IMG/VR virus record: IMGVR_UViG_2695420855_000005
Location: 1-18,451 of that record
Reading direction: 5' to 3' (one strand)
Length of the DNA: 18,451 nt
Source: a virus
Taxonomy: Duplodnaviria > Heunggongvirae > Uroviricota > Caudoviricetes
Position 1 is the stretch's first letter; each line of letters begins with the position of its first letter. The position numbers and the translations under genes were made by a program. Below the pieces are notes generated by a model. That model had not been told where the DNA came from. It made no database searches and worked only from the letters and a program-made list of their open reading frames with translations. Below are positions 606 through 17,891 of this stretch, one piece after another.

Positions 606-2753
<2,148 letters not shown>

Positions 2754-2805
2754 ACAAACTCCCTTTAAAATGGCCGATGGCACCTGTCTATGATAGGTGG
2801 CAAAT

Positions 2806-3621
2806 TCAGAAAAGAGAAGATTGCTGTGGAATAGCCGGAACTGCTCCGATCTCTGGAAGCGTTTTACGTAAGTCTTCCCACAGGGTATGTACCAGTTCCG
2901 GGGCCTGGGCAATGTCTGGCGTATGTAAAAAAAGATAAGGCGTAGTGGTCTGATGCCACTGCGCTAATTTCTGTAACCAGACCTGAAATAATTCCCGGTT
3001 TTGCGTCATATCATCACTACCGATAAAACGGATCAGCGGATTTGTCGCCGTCAGTACAGCATGTACTGGAACTTTAGGTTTTTTTCGTTGAGCGTCGCGA
3101 ATAGCTTCACTGTGTGGACATGCTGCATGAACCGGGCGGCTGTCTAAAATCACCCGATTAACGCCGCGCTGATGTAAACCGCGATTAAGCGTTTGTTCCT
3201 CTTCCCCTTTGGCGAAAAACTGTGGATGGCGGACTTCCACACCATAATTAAATTCGCCAGGGAGAGAATCGAGAAAATGCCAAAGCGCAGGCAGCTCCCG
3301 TGGGCCGAATGTGGCAGGCAGTTGCAGCCAGTATTGCCCAATGCGCGGAGCCAACGGTGACATGCGGGTCAAAAATTCAGTCACTAAATCATCGCAATGT
3401 CGTAATGCTGCCTGATGCGAAATGGTCGCCGGAAACTTAAAACAGAAGCGGAAGTCATCTGTGGTCTGTTCACGCCAGCGCAGGACAACCTCGGGTTTCG
3501 GCAGGGCGTAAAGCGTGGTGTTGCCCTCCACGCAGTTAATGTGACGGCAACTACCATTAAAATAACTGATATTTAAAGATATTATTTCAGAGTCTGGCTC
3601 TATGGGGCATGTATGGGACAC
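2806..3621 (-). CDS. yecE: DUF72-family protein YecE; 5' ~80 nt appear prophage-derived (hybrid ORF with GTG start), so the N-terminus is probably non-native
   Basis: From ...NCVEGNTTLYALPKPEVVLRWREQTTDDFRFCFKFPATISHQAAL... onward it reads as YecE; first ~27 codons (MSHTCPIEPDSEIISLNISYFNGSCRH) overlap the integrase 3' end and lack the usual DUF72 N-terminal motif (from memory). Confidence 0.75.
   Translation of the reverse strand: MSHTCPIEPDSEIISLNISYFNGSCRHINCVEGNTTLYALPKPEVVLRWREQTTDDFRFCFKFPATISHQAALRHCDDLVTEFLTRMSPLAPRIGQYWLQLPATFGPRELPALWHFLDSLPGEFNYGVEVRHPQFFAKGEEEQTLNRGLHQRGVNRVILDSRPVHAACPHSEAIRDAQRKKPKVPVHAVLTATNPLIRFIGSDDMTQNRELFQVWLQKLAQWHQTTTPYLFLHTPDIAQAPELVHTLWEDLRKTLPEIGAVPAIPQQSSLF
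3535..3590. other. Approximate attL (prophage-host junction): AT-rich stretch at the overlap of the int 3' end and the yecE 5' end
   Basis: Inferred from where yecE-like coding sequence begins and from the int stop at 3587-3589; exact core not determinable without attR or an empty-site sequence. Confidence 0.4.
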
Positions 3622-4873
3622 TCTCTGTCAACTGCTTATTGAGTAGTTCTATTTGCCCGATATTGTTATCTTCCATCCATGCACCGTAAACGTTGAATAC
3701 CATTTGTGCATTTGCATGGCCCATTTGGTTTGCTATGAAGCTTGGATTCGCTCCTGCCGATAATGCCCAGCAGGCATAAGTATGCCTAGACTGATAGGCT
3801 TTTCTGTGCCGCAGTCCTGCTCGCCTTAATGCAGATGCCCAGGAATCTCTGATGGAATCTGCTTTATAGTGGTGGCCGACTTGCTGGCATTTTTTCACCA
3901 GTTGCGGATTAAAAACAAACGTGCATTCATGGCTTGTGCTGCGTCCGAACTCCCGCAGTTTGACATCAATTTGATATTGCTGGTCAAACCTTGTCATTTC
4001 AGCCTGGCTTTTCAGGGCATCAACAGCTGGTTGAACAAGATGAATAACACGATCAGTTCCCGCCTCTGTTTTTGGTAGAGTGAACTCCCCGAGTTTTGTA
4101 TAATTACGACGGATAGTCATTGTTTTAGCTTTTAAATCAATATCCTCCCAGGCGAGAGCTATTAGCTCACCGTGACGAATGCCTGTGTATACTGCTAAGG
4201 ACCACAGGTTTTTCGTTTGTTGATGGTGACAGGCATCAATAAAGCGAATAAATTCGTCACGCGTGAGCGGATCTGGCTCTGTTCTTGATCTCTTTAATGG
4301 TGTCAGCCCGTTAAATGGGTTTGACCCGATATAGCCGTTATCAGCAGCAAATTGAAACATTCCTGCAATTGTCGTCATGTAGTAATTAACCGTAACTACC
4401 GATCTCCCTTTAACCGGCGTTGTTTTTCCATTAGAGAGATTATGATACCCGGTTAACAAATCTTTCCTGATAAACAGTAAATCTTCCTTTGTTACAGACG
4501 AAGCAAGACGTTTTTCCCCTATGCGAGGAAGCATGTTTCTCACCACGGATTGATACCGACTGAATGCATTGCTTCCTATCTCTATTTTCTTAAGGTCCAG
4601 CCATTTTTCCGAAAGTGCCTTAACTGTTATCTCTCTTTTCCCCAGGCCAAAGTGTTTCAGGTTAGGGGAATTAGGGAACTGCGCGGCGTAGTCGAAACTC
4701 CCCATTCTGATTGCAAAACAAACGGAAGTGCGAAGTTCACCTGCGATCTTCCGGTTTTTGGCGGTGTCAGGAACACCGAGGTTTTCTCTGACACGTTTGC
4801 CATTATAGTGAAACCATATGCGGAGTGATCCGCCATGGTTTTCAACGCCTGTCGGGTATGATGCGTTACTCAT
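3587..4873 (-). CDS. int: Phage tyrosine integrase (site-specific recombinase)
   Basis: 428 aa; C-terminal catalytic region ...LRHRKAYQSRHTYACWALSAGANPSFIANQMGHANAQMVFNVYGAWM... consistent with the R-H-R-Y tyrosine-recombinase signature; strong RBS GGGAGG before the ATG. Confidence 0.92.
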   Translation of the reverse strand: MSNASYPTGVENHGGSLRIWFHYNGKRVRENLGVPDTAKNRKIAGELRTSVCFAIRMGSFDYAAQFPNSPNLKHFGLGKREITVKALSEKWLDLKKIEIGSNAFSRYQSVVRNMLPRIGEKRLASSVTKEDLLFIRKDLLTGYHNLSNGKTTPVKGRSVVTVNYYMTTIAGMFQFAADNGYIGSNPFNGLTPLKRSRTEPDPLTRDEFIRFIDACHHQQTKNLWSLAVYTGIRHGELIALAWEDIDLKAKTMTIRRNYTKLGEFTLPKTEAGTDRVIHLVQPAVDALKSQAEMTRFDQQYQIDVKLREFGRSTSHECTFVFNPQLVKKCQQVGHHYKADSIRDSWASALRRAGLRHRKAYQSRHTYACWALSAGANPSFIANQMGHANAQMVFNVYGAWMEDNNIGQIELLNKQLTESVPYMPHRARL

Positions 4874-4906
4874 TAAACCTCCCAGACGTCCAGGAGCATT
4901 AACAGG

Positions 4907-5161
4907 TTAACCGGAACTTGCATTTTTGGCACCTGGTTGTTTCTGGTTTTCGATCCATCGCATAATTTCTTCGATGTTGTACAGGCATTCACTGTAGTGC
5001 CCCGGATCACCTTCTACAGCGTAATGGCGGTATTCTTTTCCCTGCATCCATGACTTTCTTCTTGCCCGCTCAATGGTGCCAGGCTTTAGCCCTGTTGATG
5101 CAATGAGGACTCTCTCCGTACACCATTTGCTGGGGGTTATCTGATAGATGATTGTCTGCAT
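4907..5161 (-). CDS. xis: Excisionase-like small DNA-binding protein
   Basis: 84 aa basic protein directly upstream of int on the same strand; GAGG RBS; sequence resembles winged-helix excisionase-like proteins. Confidence 0.7.
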   Translation of the reverse strand: MQTIIYQITPSKWCTERVLIASTGLKPGTIERARRKSWMQGKEYRHYAVEGDPGHYSECLYNIEEIMRWIENQKQPGAKNASSG

Positions 5162-5164
5162 GCC

Positions 5165-5314
5165 AACCTCATAAAATTTTCATCCACGGCAGTGGCACCA
5201 CACGTCAAACATTCGTTTCACAACTTCACGGCAGTAGAAACCGTCAACATCTCGCGTCAGGTCATAGCGATTGCCGTAACGCTGGCGTACCAATAGCTCA
5301 AACGCTTTATTCAT
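5165..5314 (-). CDS. Hypothetical small protein (49 aa, MNKAFELLVRQRYGNRYDLTRDVDGFYCREVVKRMFDVWCHCRG)
   Basis: Not in the supplied track (<60 aa); ATG preceded by AAGGAAG RBS; fills the gap between the neighbouring ORFs on the same strand. Confidence 0.4.
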
Positions 5315-5317
5315 TCT

Positions 5318-5560
5318 TTACTTCCTTTTCATGGCACGTAATTTTTTCAGATGAGCTTCTTGTTCTGTTTCTGCCAGAATTTGTCGGTATTCCTGGTGAT
5401 CGATCCGTTCAAACGATTCATTAAAATCGTTCATTTTTACCGATTGTGTTTGCCCGTCCATTCTTCTGTACAACACGGTGTTGTTTATGCAGCGAACAAT
5501 TTTTACCGGGTAACCGGCACTGTCGGTATACAGTTGTCCCTGATTAATCAGAGCGAACAT
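5318..5560 (-). CDS. Hypothetical phage protein (about 80 aa from the internal ATG with CAGGAG RBS)
   Basis: ORF MFALINQGQLYTDSAGYPVKIVRCINNTVLYRRMDGQTQSVKMNDFNESFERIDHQEYRQILAETEQEAHLKKLRAMKRK; packed in the leftward operon. Confidence 0.5.
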   Translation of the reverse strand: MFALINQGQLYTDSAGYPVKIVRCINNTVLYRRMDGQTQSVKMNDFNESFERIDHQEYRQILAETEQEAHLKKLRAMKRK

Positions 5561-6003: not shown

Positions 6004-6831
6004 TTATTTAATCTGGATAAATGGTGTATTGGCACCACTGGTCATGTATTGCGGCAGTGTACCGTTCCACTTGTTGATGGCTTCCAGCTCCATGACGCTA
6101 GGGTTCTGGCGCAGAGCTTCGCCGCGTAAACGAATGGCATCGGCTTCTGCTTGGGCTTTTGTTCGAATGGCATCAGCCTGTCCGGCAGCTTCTGCACGCA
6201 GCATGTTGGCCTCCGCTTCACGTTGCTTGACTTCCTGTTCGCGCTGCAGGGTTTTCTGGTTTGCCGTGACTTTGGCGTTAATGCTGTCGATAACGGTTGG
6301 CGGGTATTCCGGTTTACCTACATAAGAGAGGCTCATTACCTGAATGCCGATGGGTGTCATCTCTTCCTGAATGTCTTTAAGTGCGGCATCCAGTAGTTCA
6401 GACTTGCCGCCGTCGATAAATTTGTCGGTGGTCATTTTGCTGGCCAGTCGATTGAGTGCGTCGGCGATCTTCTGGCGCAGGTCAGTGTCGGTAATGTCAT
6501 CCACGCCTTTGCGGTAGGTCTGAAACACCGTGGTAACTTTGGATGGATCAACTTTGTAGGCAACACCGATGTGATAGCCGATGGTTGTGCCGTCACTCAT
6601 CTGGAAGCTGAATGGCTCATCGTAGGTCTTCATTTGTTTGAAGGTTGGGAAGATGTAAACTTCAGTATTCCAGCCAGTCCAGTAGCGACCAACACCGACC
6701 ACCTCACCGACGCCTTTATCGTCGCCCAGTTTATTTACTTTGATGCCAACATTACCGGGTTCAACGCGATCGCAACCGACAAGGCCAATGGTCGGCAGAA
6801 CAATGGCTAAAGCAAAAATAATTTTTTTCAT
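6004..6831 (-). CDS. SPFH/band-7 (prohibitin/HflC-like) domain lipoprotein; lipobox LVGC with Asp at +2 suggests inner-membrane retention
   Basis: MKKIIFALAIVLPTIGLVGCD signal/lipobox; SPFH core then Ala/Glu/Gln-rich coiled coil ...QREQEVKQREAEANMLRAEAAGQADAIRTKAQAEADAIRLRGEALRQNP... typical of the band-7 C-terminus. Confidence 0.85.
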   Translation of the reverse strand: MKKIIFALAIVLPTIGLVGCDRVEPGNVGIKVNKLGDDKGVGEVVGVGRYWTGWNTEVYIFPTFKQMKTYDEPFSFQMSDGTTIGYHIGVAYKVDPSKVTTVFQTYRKGVDDITDTDLRQKIADALNRLASKMTTDKFIDGGKSELLDAALKDIQEEMTPIGIQVMSLSYVGKPEYPPTVIDSINAKVTANQKTLQREQEVKQREAEANMLRAEAAGQADAIRTKAQAEADAIRLRGEALRQNPSVMELEAINKWNGTLPQYMTSGANTPFIQIK

Positions 6832-10283: not shown

Positions 10284-10364
10284 AGACTGACTGTCACGAG
10301 CAGTAACTCACGATGCATACGTTTTGGCGTGAGTTCTGAAATGTCATTCTCAAGGAGCAATCAG

Positions 10365-11072
10365 ATGAATACCGCAATTTTTACCGATAAAGCATCCATG
10401 ACCAGCGTTGAGATCGCAGAGCTGGTGGGTAAGCGTCATGACAATGTAAAACGCACTATTGAAACATTAGCCAAAGGTGGTGTTGTCCGGTCTCCTCAAA
10501 TTGAGGTTTCCGAAAGAATCAATAACTTAGGGTTTAAAGTTCAACACGAGCATTATCTGTTTGAAGGCGAACAAGGTAAGCGCGACAGTATCATTGTTGT
10601 CGCGCAGCTTTGCCCTGAATTCACCGCTCGCCTGGTAGACCGCTGGCGCGAACTGGAAGAACAAATCCGCAAACCAATGAGCCAGATCGAAATGGTTGCT
10701 GCAATGGCGCTTGAAGCTGTTCGCCAACAAAGACGTCTTGAGCAGGTGGAAGAGAAAGTCACCCACGTTACTGAAACTGTCGAACAAATCAAAAGAGGCG
10801 CCATACGCGATGGTTATGCAGGCTATCGTCAGCTGGCGGCGAAAACGGGTATGTCAGATGCGAAATGCCGCAATCTGGTGAACGCATATCAGATCCCTAC
10901 CGACACTCATGAATTTATGACGCCGGACGGATTGTTGTCGCGTCGTGCAATTGTTGCTGTAGAACCCTTCATGTCTGCTTTTCATCGCATGATGAGTGAA
11001 GCAGAACCACGAGGTACTCGCTGGTATCACCCGAAAATGGGGTTGTTCCAGGCGCTGGGCTGGCAGGTGTAA
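10365..11072 (+). CDS. Rha-family phage regulatory protein (antirepressor-like), 235 aa from the ATG with AAGGAG RBS
   Basis: N-terminal ...TSVEIAELVGKRHDNVKRTIETL... matches the Rha (Phage_pRha) domain as recalled. Confidence 0.8.
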   Translation: MNTAIFTDKASMTSVEIAELVGKRHDNVKRTIETLAKGGVVRSPQIEVSERINNLGFKVQHEHYLFEGEQGKRDSIIVVAQLCPEFTARLVDRWRELEEQIRKPMSQIEMVAAMALEAVRQQRRLEQVEEKVTHVTETVEQIKRGAIRDGYAGYRQLAAKTGMSDAKCRNLVNAYQIPTDTHEFMTPDGLLSRRAIVAVEPFMSAFHRMMSEAEPRGTRWYHPKMGLFQALGWQV

Positions 11073-11091
11073 TTATGCTCACAGGTAACAC

Positions 11092-11265
11092 ATGCAAGTA
11101 CTCAATCGCTGGTTCCGTGATGGAAGGGGGCGTCGCGTCCACGTTATACGCTGGGAGTCTGAAACACAGCGGGTTATTTACCTGCGTGATGGTTATCCGC
11201 ATGAATGCTTCAGCCCGCTGTGGTTGTTTCGTCGTGATTTTGTTGAGTGCGAAGCACCAGCATAA
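11092..11265 (+). CDS. Hypothetical small basic protein (57 aa, MQVLNRWFRDGRGRRVHVIRWESETQRVIYLRDGYPHECFSPLWLFRRDFVECEAPA)
   Basis: Not in the supplied track (<60 aa); same frame as the downstream FinO-like gene; weak RBS. Confidence 0.35.
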   Translation: MQVLNRWFRDGRGRRVHVIRWESETQRVIYLRDGYPHECFSPLWLFRRDFVECEAPA

Positions 11266-11328
11266 GCTTGAACTGCTTGAAAAACCTGGATATATCATTC
11301 TGATATCTAGAGTAATGGAGAATGGTAT

Positions 11329-11721
11329 ATGGGAAGAAAAGCAAGGCATCTTGCAAATAAAGAAATCATTAAAGTATTGGCTGAACGCTATCCAGAAAGC
11401 TTCTTTGTTATTCCATACAAAGTTGTTCCGCTTGTTCACGATATCGTTCATGAGCTTTTTGCCGATCTCGGACATATACCTAAGGAATATAAAAACAGCC
11501 TTCGAAGAGCCATCTATCAGTACAAAAGCTCCGCTGCATACCTTCAGTCAGTCGCGTTTGGAGAATATCGCCGCAATCTGGCTGGAAATCGTATTGTCAG
11601 AACTTCCGTATCTGAGCGCGAAGAAGCCAGAGCACAACTCAAAGAACGTGGTGTCTGGACTCGTCGTATGGAGCTCTTGTTCAAAGTTAATATGGGTAGA
11701 AAAGAAGCGTCTAATCGCTGA
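11329..11721 (+). CDS. FinO/ProQ-domain RNA-binding protein (RNA chaperone family), 130 aa
   Basis: ...KEIIKVLAERYPESFFVIPYKVVPLVHDIVHELFADL...LRRAIYQYKSSAAYLQSVAFGEYRRNLAGNRIVRTSVSEREEARAQLKE... aligns by eye with the E. coli ProQ N-terminal FinO domain (...KEVIAFLAERFPHCF...[49 protein letters not shown]...) from memory; GGAG RBS. Confidence 0.75.
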   Translation: MGRKARHLANKEIIKVLAERYPESFFVIPYKVVPLVHDIVHELFADLGHIPKEYKNSLRRAIYQYKSSAAYLQSVAFGEYRRNLAGNRIVRTSVSEREEARAQLKERGVWTRRMELLFKVNMGRKEASNR

Positions 11722-12013
11722 ATTTTATCAAAACATTGATTCCTCAATTTCGGGACGTTACACTGTTCAGGCACCTTATAAAGCGGGTGTCGGGATTGGC
11801 GTCCTGGAATTCAATATAGAGCATAACCGCGCTCATGCGGTCTTTTCGTATCATGAGCATTGCTACGTCCAAATTATGGTGGGGCGTGCAGGGGCATCGC
11901 AAGATGCGCCGGGTTCTATGTTGACCGGTTACGCCAACCCTGTACGTCTCACCACCTCTGTGATTGGCGTCCCATGTGGTGAGTTCTTTGAATTCAACAT
12001 AGGGGCTGTCACC

Positions 12014-12577
12014 ATGACTACTTTCCCAACTCTCTCTCAACCTGAAATTGCCATCGTTGATGGTCAGGCTGTTACATCTTCTTTGGCTGTTGCTGACTTC
12101 TTCTCTAAACGTCATGACGATGTTCTGAAAAAGATCCGCATTTTGGATTGTTCTCCAGAGTTTTGTGCCCGCAATTTTGCGGAGACATCAATTTTGGTAC
12201 GCCAGCCCAACGGCGGTACTCGCAAACTTCCCTGCTATCAAATCACCCGCGACGGCTTCGCATTCCTTGCTATGGGCTTCACTGGCAAGCGTGCCGCCCG
12301 GTTCAAAGAGGCATACATCAATGCCTTTAACCAGATGGAGAGGAGCTTATCAGGAGCTGGTGCGGCTGAGATGTCATCTGTCGCACAAAACGCCAGAGGC
12401 GTATACCTGCATTTGCGTGAAATCCATCAAATCTGGAGAAGCCAGCTTTATCCCATGCTTAAGGCTGTTGAATCTCCGCTGGCTGGCAAACTGTACGACC
12501 GTGTAGGTGATGCAGTTTTTGGTGCTGCACTTGTTGATTCCAGGCTGAATGGTTCTGACAAGGAGGTGCACCCATGA
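12014..12577 (+). CDS. Second Rha-family phage regulatory protein (188 aa); N-terminal extent uncertain because the frame stays open upstream
   Basis: ...QAVTSSLAVADFFSKRHDDVLKKIRIL... Rha-type motif; ATG preceded by AGGGG. Confidence 0.7.
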   Translation: MTTFPTLSQPEIAIVDGQAVTSSLAVADFFSKRHDDVLKKIRILDCSPEFCARNFAETSILVRQPNGGTRKLPCYQITRDGFAFLAMGFTGKRAARFKEAYINAFNQMERSLSGAGAAEMSSVAQNARGVYLHLREIHQIWRSQLYPMLKAVESPLAGKLYDRVGDAVFGAALVDSRLNGSDKEVHP

Positions 12578-17493: not shown

Positions 17494-17510
17494 TTTTGTG
17501 GAGAAAGTTG

Positions 17511-17891
17511 ATGCGTGATATTCAGATGGTTCTTGAACGCTGGGGGGCATGGGCTGCAAGTGGTAACACCGGGGTGGACTATTCTCCGATCGCTGCCGGA
17601 TTCAAAGGACTTTTACCATCTGCCACTAAACCACGTCCGGCCTGCTGCGATGATGACGGACTTATCATTGAAAACTGTCTTGCTCGTCTGAAGCAGAAAA
17701 AACCTGAGGAGTATTCGCTTCTCATTGCTCATTATTTGTTGCGAATATCAAAAAGACAGATAGCCAGGACGAGAAAGAAAAGCGAAAAAGCAATACGAAT
17801 TGAGATGCAGATAGCCGAAGGGTTTATTGACGGATGTTTGTCTGTGCTGGGGGTAAGACTGGAGATGGACGACTGGCTGCTAAAAAAGTAA
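17511..17891 (+). CDS. Q: Late-gene antiterminator Q (phage 82/21-type family)
   Basis: MRDIQMVLERWGAWAASGN...PACCDDDGLIIENCLARLKQ... resembles Q-family antiterminators (from memory); followed by a strong intrinsic terminator; GGAG RBS. Confidence 0.8.
   Translation: MRDIQMVLERWGAWAASGNTGVDYSPIAAGFKGLLPSATKPRPACCDDDGLIIENCLARLKQKKPEEYSLLIAHYLLRISKRQIARTRKKSEKAIRIEMQIAEGFIDGCLSVLGVRLEMDDWLLKK

Follow-up and report, generated by a model that had tools for sequence, protein, structure and literature searches.

An int–yecE junction that very probably forms the attL of a phi297-type lambdoid prophage

The viral record IMGVR_UViG_2695420855_000005 (Caudoviricetes; its 18,451 nucleotides are referred to here as the window) contains a junction between a phage integrase gene, int, and a host gene, yecE, that has lost its 5′ end (yecE′). 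The list of open reading frames (ORFs) and a reading of the minus strand, with genes named after nearly identical loci annotated in RefSeq, give the gene order, from right to left and all on the minus strand, excisionase, int, yecE′, yecN, cmoA, cmoB and the end of torZ. The early region of a lambdoid prophage makes up the right-hand ~15 kb of the window. The genes and frames that meet at the junction are:

2806–3621, minus strand: hybrid yecE frame in its longest form, 271 amino acids, GTG start at 3619–3621
3540–3621, minus strand: phage-derived 5′ part of the hybrid yecE frame, codons 1–27 and the first base of the next
3587–4873, minus strand: tyrosine integrase gene int, 428 amino acids, stop TGA at 3587–3589 (from the ORF list)
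4907–5161, minus strand: excisionase gene, 84 amino acids (Pfam DUF1233, 'putative excisionase', E 2e-29; xisR in relatives according to RefSeq)

The Int protein has the two expected Pfam domains (Arm-DNA-bind_2, residues 7–70, E 5.6e-24; Phage_integrase, residues 203–396, E 9.8e-19), and a tyrosine integrase with an arm-binding domain thus adjoins the junction together with an excisionase. A first-pass annotation, made from the letters of this DNA, had placed the int stop within about 35 nucleotides of the start of a yecE ORF that opens with GTG and whose first ~27 codons looked non-native. The overlap of int and hybrid yecE is indeed exactly 35 nucleotides (3587–3621), the GTG is where it was read, and alignment with an uninterrupted K-12-like yecE locus (L001) confirms the foreign character of the codons. 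Window and L001 are identical through 3539, mismatch at 3540 (T in the window, A in L001) and 3544 (A, G), and share no similarity beyond 3547; because identity ends at 3539, codons 1–27 of the hybrid frame lie wholly on the phage side. The first phage base lies in codon 28, which is ATT (Ile) where native yecE has TTT (Phe), and hybrid residues 29–271 are native YecE residues 30–272. The 27 phage-side codons come from reading, in a different frame, the 3′ end of int and the spacer downstream of it. Had native yecE begun in the same way, the junction would have to be sought elsewhere; the first 28 residues read MSHTCPIEPDSEIISLNISYFNGSCRHI in the hybrid and MIYIGLPQWSHPKWVRLGITSLEEYARHF in native YecE.

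Host homology stops inside yecE at a published attachment (att) site, which occurs in a single 21-bp copy in the window:

3527–3547: attL, the published 21-bp att TCCACGCAGTTAATGTGACGG, identical to repeat_region 403–423 of LC567842
3529–3539: strand-exchange segment CACGCAGTTAA, its most likely part being GCAGTTAA at 3532–3539

The 19-bp core given in the phage phi297 record AJ431361, ccgtcacattaactgcgtg, is the unchanged reverse complement of window 3529–3547. For related yecE phages, attP has been sequenced from excised circles, which defined the 21-bp att (Nakamura et al. 2021, PMC8112680). Here, attP was predicted by linking the phage arms of the window and of a related attR, and was then found as a contiguous sequence in the mitomycin-induced phage ASU11. 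The att forms compare as follows:

attP, ASU11: GCGTCAT-GCAGTTAA-TGTGACGG-CAAC
attB, K-12-like L001: CCTCCAC-GCAGTTAA-AGTGGCGG-GCAT
attL, window: CCTCCAC-GCAGTTAA-TGTGACGG-CAAC
attR, LC567842: GCGTCAT-GCAGTTAA-AGTGACGG-GCAT
attR, RM7190: GCGTCAC-GCAGTTAA-AGTGGCGG-GCAT

In attL, bases 3527–3528 are bacterial (TC, where attP has GT) and base 3540 is of phage origin (T, where attB has A); exchange therefore fell within CACGCAGTTAA (3529–3539). If the attP of the window phage has the T variant, the exchange most likely lay within GCAGTTAA (3532–3539). Ahead of GCAGTTAA, the phage side of att comes in two variants, GTCAT or GTCAC (RM7190, locus L011 22425–22445; L004 2137–2157; L006 1–60), and identity with attB therefore extends over 8 bp or 11 bp, depending on the phage. 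The bacterial side is polymorphic too, with attB reading GTGGCGG or GTGACGG.

The region is thus, with high confidence, the attL of a lambda-like prophage, of the same type as phi297 and Stx2_12E129_yecE, inserted site-specifically in yecE. On this scheme the prophage inserted into yecE codons 29–31, Int swapping strands between attP GCGTCA[T/C]GCAGTTAATGTGACGG and attB CCTCCACGCAGTTAAAGTG[G/A]CGG inside the GCAGTTAA/CACGCAGTTAA common to both. Codons 30–272 of yecE now lie directly downstream of int, in frame with 27 phage codons by accident, and the first 29 native codons would remain with yecD and the native promoter at the distant prophage end, attR, where the predicted sequence is GTCA[T/C]GCAGTTAAAGTG[G/A]CGG. 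The reciprocal attR does occur in the closest genome, RM7190, where yecD is followed by a 32-codon yecE stub some 46 kb from attL, and again in LC567842. The earlier statement that integration had replaced the yecE 5′ end thus stands in one part, as phage DNA now occupies that place, and falls in another, the native end being displaced to attR and not deleted. Excision would restore yecE, and we infer that the prophage in the window is competent for it.

In phage lambda, a tyrosine integrase with an arm-binding domain acts on an overlap flanked by inverted core sites, with arm sites on both sides and int beside att. Candidates for each of these sites are present here. The shared segment of attP is flanked by an inverted CGTCA...TGACG pair, 11 nucleotides apart, which we take as putative core-type sites around an overlap of roughly 7 bp, CAGTTAA. 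Arm-type candidates follow on the int side:

3601–3620, plus strand: two tandem TATGGGRCA, 11 bp apart, candidate arm-type Int sites of the P′ arm

This pair lies 62–81 bp from the core, within the last codons of int, and two bases of the hybrid GTG (3619–3621) fall within its second copy. The opposite (P) arm of related phages holds three more tandem TATGGGRCA, ~120–150 bp from the core (L004 1995–2024); the count of 3 in L004 compares with 0.18 expected and was reached in 0 of 200 shuffles. The motif is also kept in P27-class phages despite diverged flanks. Over the whole window the shorter ATGGGRCA occurs three times against 1.5 expected, which alone is not significant, and the case for arm sites is built on where the copies lie, their tandem 11-bp spacing and the further three on the opposite side. 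The tandem repeats are likely to be arm-type Int sites and, taken with the arm-binding domain of Int, would give attP a lambda-like layout, with int beside att so that integration parts int from its phage neighbour. Unlike lambda, this system has its own att sequence, target and arm motif, its arm repeats reach into int, and its target is intragenic, not intergenic. The reconstructed attP also matches LC567834.1 (41376–41686) over its full length at 98.4%, at the junction of a Stx2a phage lodged inside the PPompW prophage; this PPompW junction is a published prophage-in-prophage site derived from yecE-like sequence (PMC8112680).

The prophage part of the window shares 96% identity, over 94% of its length, with the stx2d prophage at yecE of E. 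coli O91 RM7190, and 95.8%, over 75–84% of its length, with several records of Stx2a/Stx2d phages whose names give yecE as their location. The Stx2a-converting phage Stx2_12E129_yecE (LC567842) and its sister records carry a 21-bp 'duplication due to insertion' whose int-proximal copy is identical to window 3527–3547; their early regions are mosaic, and the immunity/antirepressor region of the window is partly unshared. Phage phi297 (EH297; AJ431361), the classical phage of the yecE site, has the same xis–int–core–yecE order, an Int 97% identical to that of the window over 428 amino acids and, ahead of the junction, a corresponding open stretch of 33 codons with 2 amino-acid differences. The phi297 record already labels yecE 'partial due to integration' and differs from the window by a few point differences; it names the int-side end attR, following the orientation of the phage map, where we use attL, following that of the window. 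The phi297 proviral junction in yecE is reportedly the subject of De Greve et al. 2002. A second class, comprising phiP27 (AJ298298) and the P27-like prophages of HUSEC2011 and G3/10, uses the same insertion point, all of its members breaking after GCAGTTAA. The P27 Int is 75% identical to the window Int, has 437 amino acids and ends ~19 nucleotides from the core; the phage side of its class reads CATGACGG where that of the window reads TGTGACGG, and the class keeps the arm-type-like repeats and the TGACGG element, as in the window phage. Nakamura et al. (2021, PMC8112680) surveyed the occupancy of yecE and found Stx1a, Stx2a, Stx2d and non-Stx phages there, in line with the first-pass remark that yecE is a known insertion site of lambdoid phages, Stx-converting ones included.

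Of the complete E. coli genomes, 5,426 in all, 4,864 have an uninterrupted K-12-type sequence across the junction point and 562 (~10%) lack it. In 425 genomes yecE adjoins an integrase of either class, and 103 share the junction type of the window; with 4,864 uninterrupted genomes against 103 with the same junction, this is not a chance feature. The yecE attL junction of such prophages is already described, because LC567842, AJ431361 and PMC8112680 define the same att, and there is nothing new in the feature itself. What is added here are small refinements of published att definitions: an 8–11-bp bound on the crossover, candidate core and arm sites, and an argument that the hybrid is fortuitous. 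In practice, the junction can help in typing and in calling prophage boundaries, since it flags a yecE lambdoid prophage from a family in which stx2 is often present.

A fossil arrangement, left by a defective remnant or by some other integrative island, would also place int against yecE. Only ~15 kb of the element lies in the window, attR is absent from it, and defects are frequent among the lambdoid prophages of E. coli (PMC8112680). Set against this, the element has intact open frames for int, xis, a cI-like repressor, replication proteins and a Q-like antiterminator; its closest relatives, at ~46 kb, are complete prophages with structural and lysis genes; and related phages have been induced and packaged (ASU11 by mitomycin C; the 12E129 phages). 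We hold a fossil to be unlikely here.

The chief question left by the first-pass annotation was whether the hybrid yecE is expressed or functional. Across 30 enterobacterial sequences (76–83% identical overall), 15 of the 28 N-terminal YecE positions are invariant and 7 more nearly so, and the MI.(I/L)GL motif found there aligns even in the distant solved homologue EF0366. The hybrid matches native YecE at 4 of these 28 residues (L, I, R and H), of which R and H lie within the att repeat. With the NCBIfam YecE equivalog model NF007637 the hybrid scores 492.6 bits and the native protein 551.6 bits (residues 1–272), a drop of 59 bits; the match to the hybrid begins at residue 17, profile position 18, and leaves the first 17 profile positions unmatched. 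The hybrid is above the cut-off of this model (412 bits), and lacks a full-length match that includes the conserved N terminus (M1, G5–W9, H11, W14, R16–I19). Pfam DUF72 also matches the hybrid frame (E 7.7e-46), with a model that begins near YecE residue 12–21 and is uninformative for the N terminus. Nor does the junction resemble a gene-rebuilding integration of the tRNA or ssrA type, the sole similarity to the native end being the imperfect att repeat.

The signals for expression are equally sparse. Upstream of the hybrid GTG stands only AGAGA, with no GGAG-type Shine–Dalgarno sequence, and a consensus scan for promoters and terminators, covering 2200–5400, gave no promoter-like site on the minus strand at the junction; promoter-like matches in this interval were fewer than in shuffles, and the terminator-like matches lie inside genes and are probably due to chance. 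Native yecD and yecE overlap by 4 nucleotides (ATGA, the yecD stop and the yecE start), and integration leaves yecD at the far end of the prophage. At P27-class junctions, 16–20 open codons precede the truncated yecE without an ATG, GTG or TTG, so there is no selection on yecE phages to provide a start, nor is a start codon among their conserved properties. Because the N terminus is lost, the ribosome-binding site is poor, the 5′ part is the end of int in another frame, the GTG falls in an arm repeat and the P27 class has no start codon, we regard the hybrid frame as probably an accidental, non-functional remnant that, we infer, is neither expressed nor active. The point that had been left open thus receives a provisional negative answer, from the lost conserved N terminus and the poor Shine–Dalgarno sequence. 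A Cys at hybrid residue 168 (3118–3120; Arg in E. coli relatives) was considered as a separate sign of decay and rejected, its column being variable across Enterobacteriaceae; it is probably a neutral polymorphism.

Several points weigh against an accidental remnant at an attL. GTG is a legitimate start codon, and in RefSeq the hybrid is listed as an intact DUF72 protein. The consensus scan shows no terminator-like site on the minus strand between int and the hybrid frame, and read-through int transcripts could therefore cover that frame. A search of the window for attR, or for any second att copy, found none, and the attP base matching 3531 could be T or C, which makes the crossover bound 11 bp and not 8 bp. 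The literature search for a function of DUF72/YecE returned nothing usable, mostly DUF72x families in plants. An AlphaFold2 model of native YecE, built from the 30-sequence alignment to learn if residues 1–28 make up the first strand and helix of the barrel, had a mean predicted local distance difference test score (pLDDT) of 71, with residues 1–39 below 50, and was not used.

The open frame with its GTG, the score above the equivalog cut-off, the RefSeq protein call and the lack of a terminator-like site would all suit a functional replacement, in which the 27 phage codons rebuild an active YecE that is transcribed from phage promoters through int, as phages that enter tRNA genes or ssrA restore the 3′ end of their target. 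This we judge very improbable. The 4 shared residues of 28, two of them encoded by the att repeat, are few for a conserved native N terminus; int coding sequence and arm-type repeats fully account for the phage-side sequence; P27-class phages sit at the same site without a canonical start codon; the ATA and ATT starts given by RefSeq are not credible for initiation; and the Shine–Dalgarno sequence is poor. A purely regulatory effect is another reading: read-through from int (pL or pI, for example on induction) would enter yecE′–yecN–cmoA–cmoB and tie the host genes for tRNA cmo5U modification to the phage state, or these genes would be cut off from the yecD promoter. The co-oriented (minus-strand) and tightly spaced int, yecE′, yecN, cmoA and cmoB, the 4-nucleotide overlap of native yecD and yecE, which suggests one operon, and the lack of a terminator-like site on the minus strand at the junction point this way; the promoter consensus scan is uninformative in either direction, no description of such an effect was found in the literature searched, and the ~10% of complete E. 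coli genomes that tolerate an interrupted site argue against a strong one. We hold a regulatory effect, too, to be unlikely. More far-fetched is a fusion that is not silent at all, in which int or pL read-through would express a chimeric YecE′ and/or yecN–cmoA–cmoB, with the arm sites at the start codon acting as a switch; if true, read-through would tie host tRNA wobble (cmo5U) modification or YecE activity to the state of the prophage.

The truncated hybrid should probably be annotated as a pseudogene. RefSeq/PGAP instead calls a 'DUF72 domain-containing protein' with an ATA start in the class of the window (WP_077628759.1; window 3601–3603) and an ATT start in the P27 class, apparently a systematic artefact in the annotation of prophage junctions. 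Hybrids annotated in this way include L002 3107–3904, L007 1607–2377 and L008 1607–2380; the 5′ stub at attR is given as a pseudogene (L011 22330–22425). Starts of native YecE vary among database entries as well: many NCBI entries (Citrobacter, Salmonella, Klebsiella, Enterobacter) have 257 amino acids, that is, a start 15 codons late. These starts are probably mis-called, to judge from residues 1–15, which are nearly invariant in the 272-amino-acid forms.

At the other end of the window, the Q-like antiterminator gene occupies 17496–17891, and the window ends ~0.5 kb beyond it, before the expected stx position. In RM7190 (L010 20938–23619) the next ~2.7 kb hold a gene for a DNA methyltransferase, three tRNA genes and stx2d, the tRNA genes and stx2d lying 1.1–2.7 kb beyond the point that matches the window end; the window itself has no tRNA genes. 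The yecE site is used by non-Stx phages as well (PMC8112680). Positions 10329–12577 (plus strand) are crowded with long overlapping frames, among them a 500-amino-acid ORF with a Rha/antirepressor-like C-terminal part and a 130-amino-acid ORF nested in another frame. Relatives are annotated with several Rha/BRO-family genes in the matching region, and the 500-amino-acid frame is probably an artefact of listing the longest ORF. Finally, 6004–6831 (minus strand), in the early-left region of the prophage, encodes an SPFH/band-7 domain protein that is conserved in relatives.

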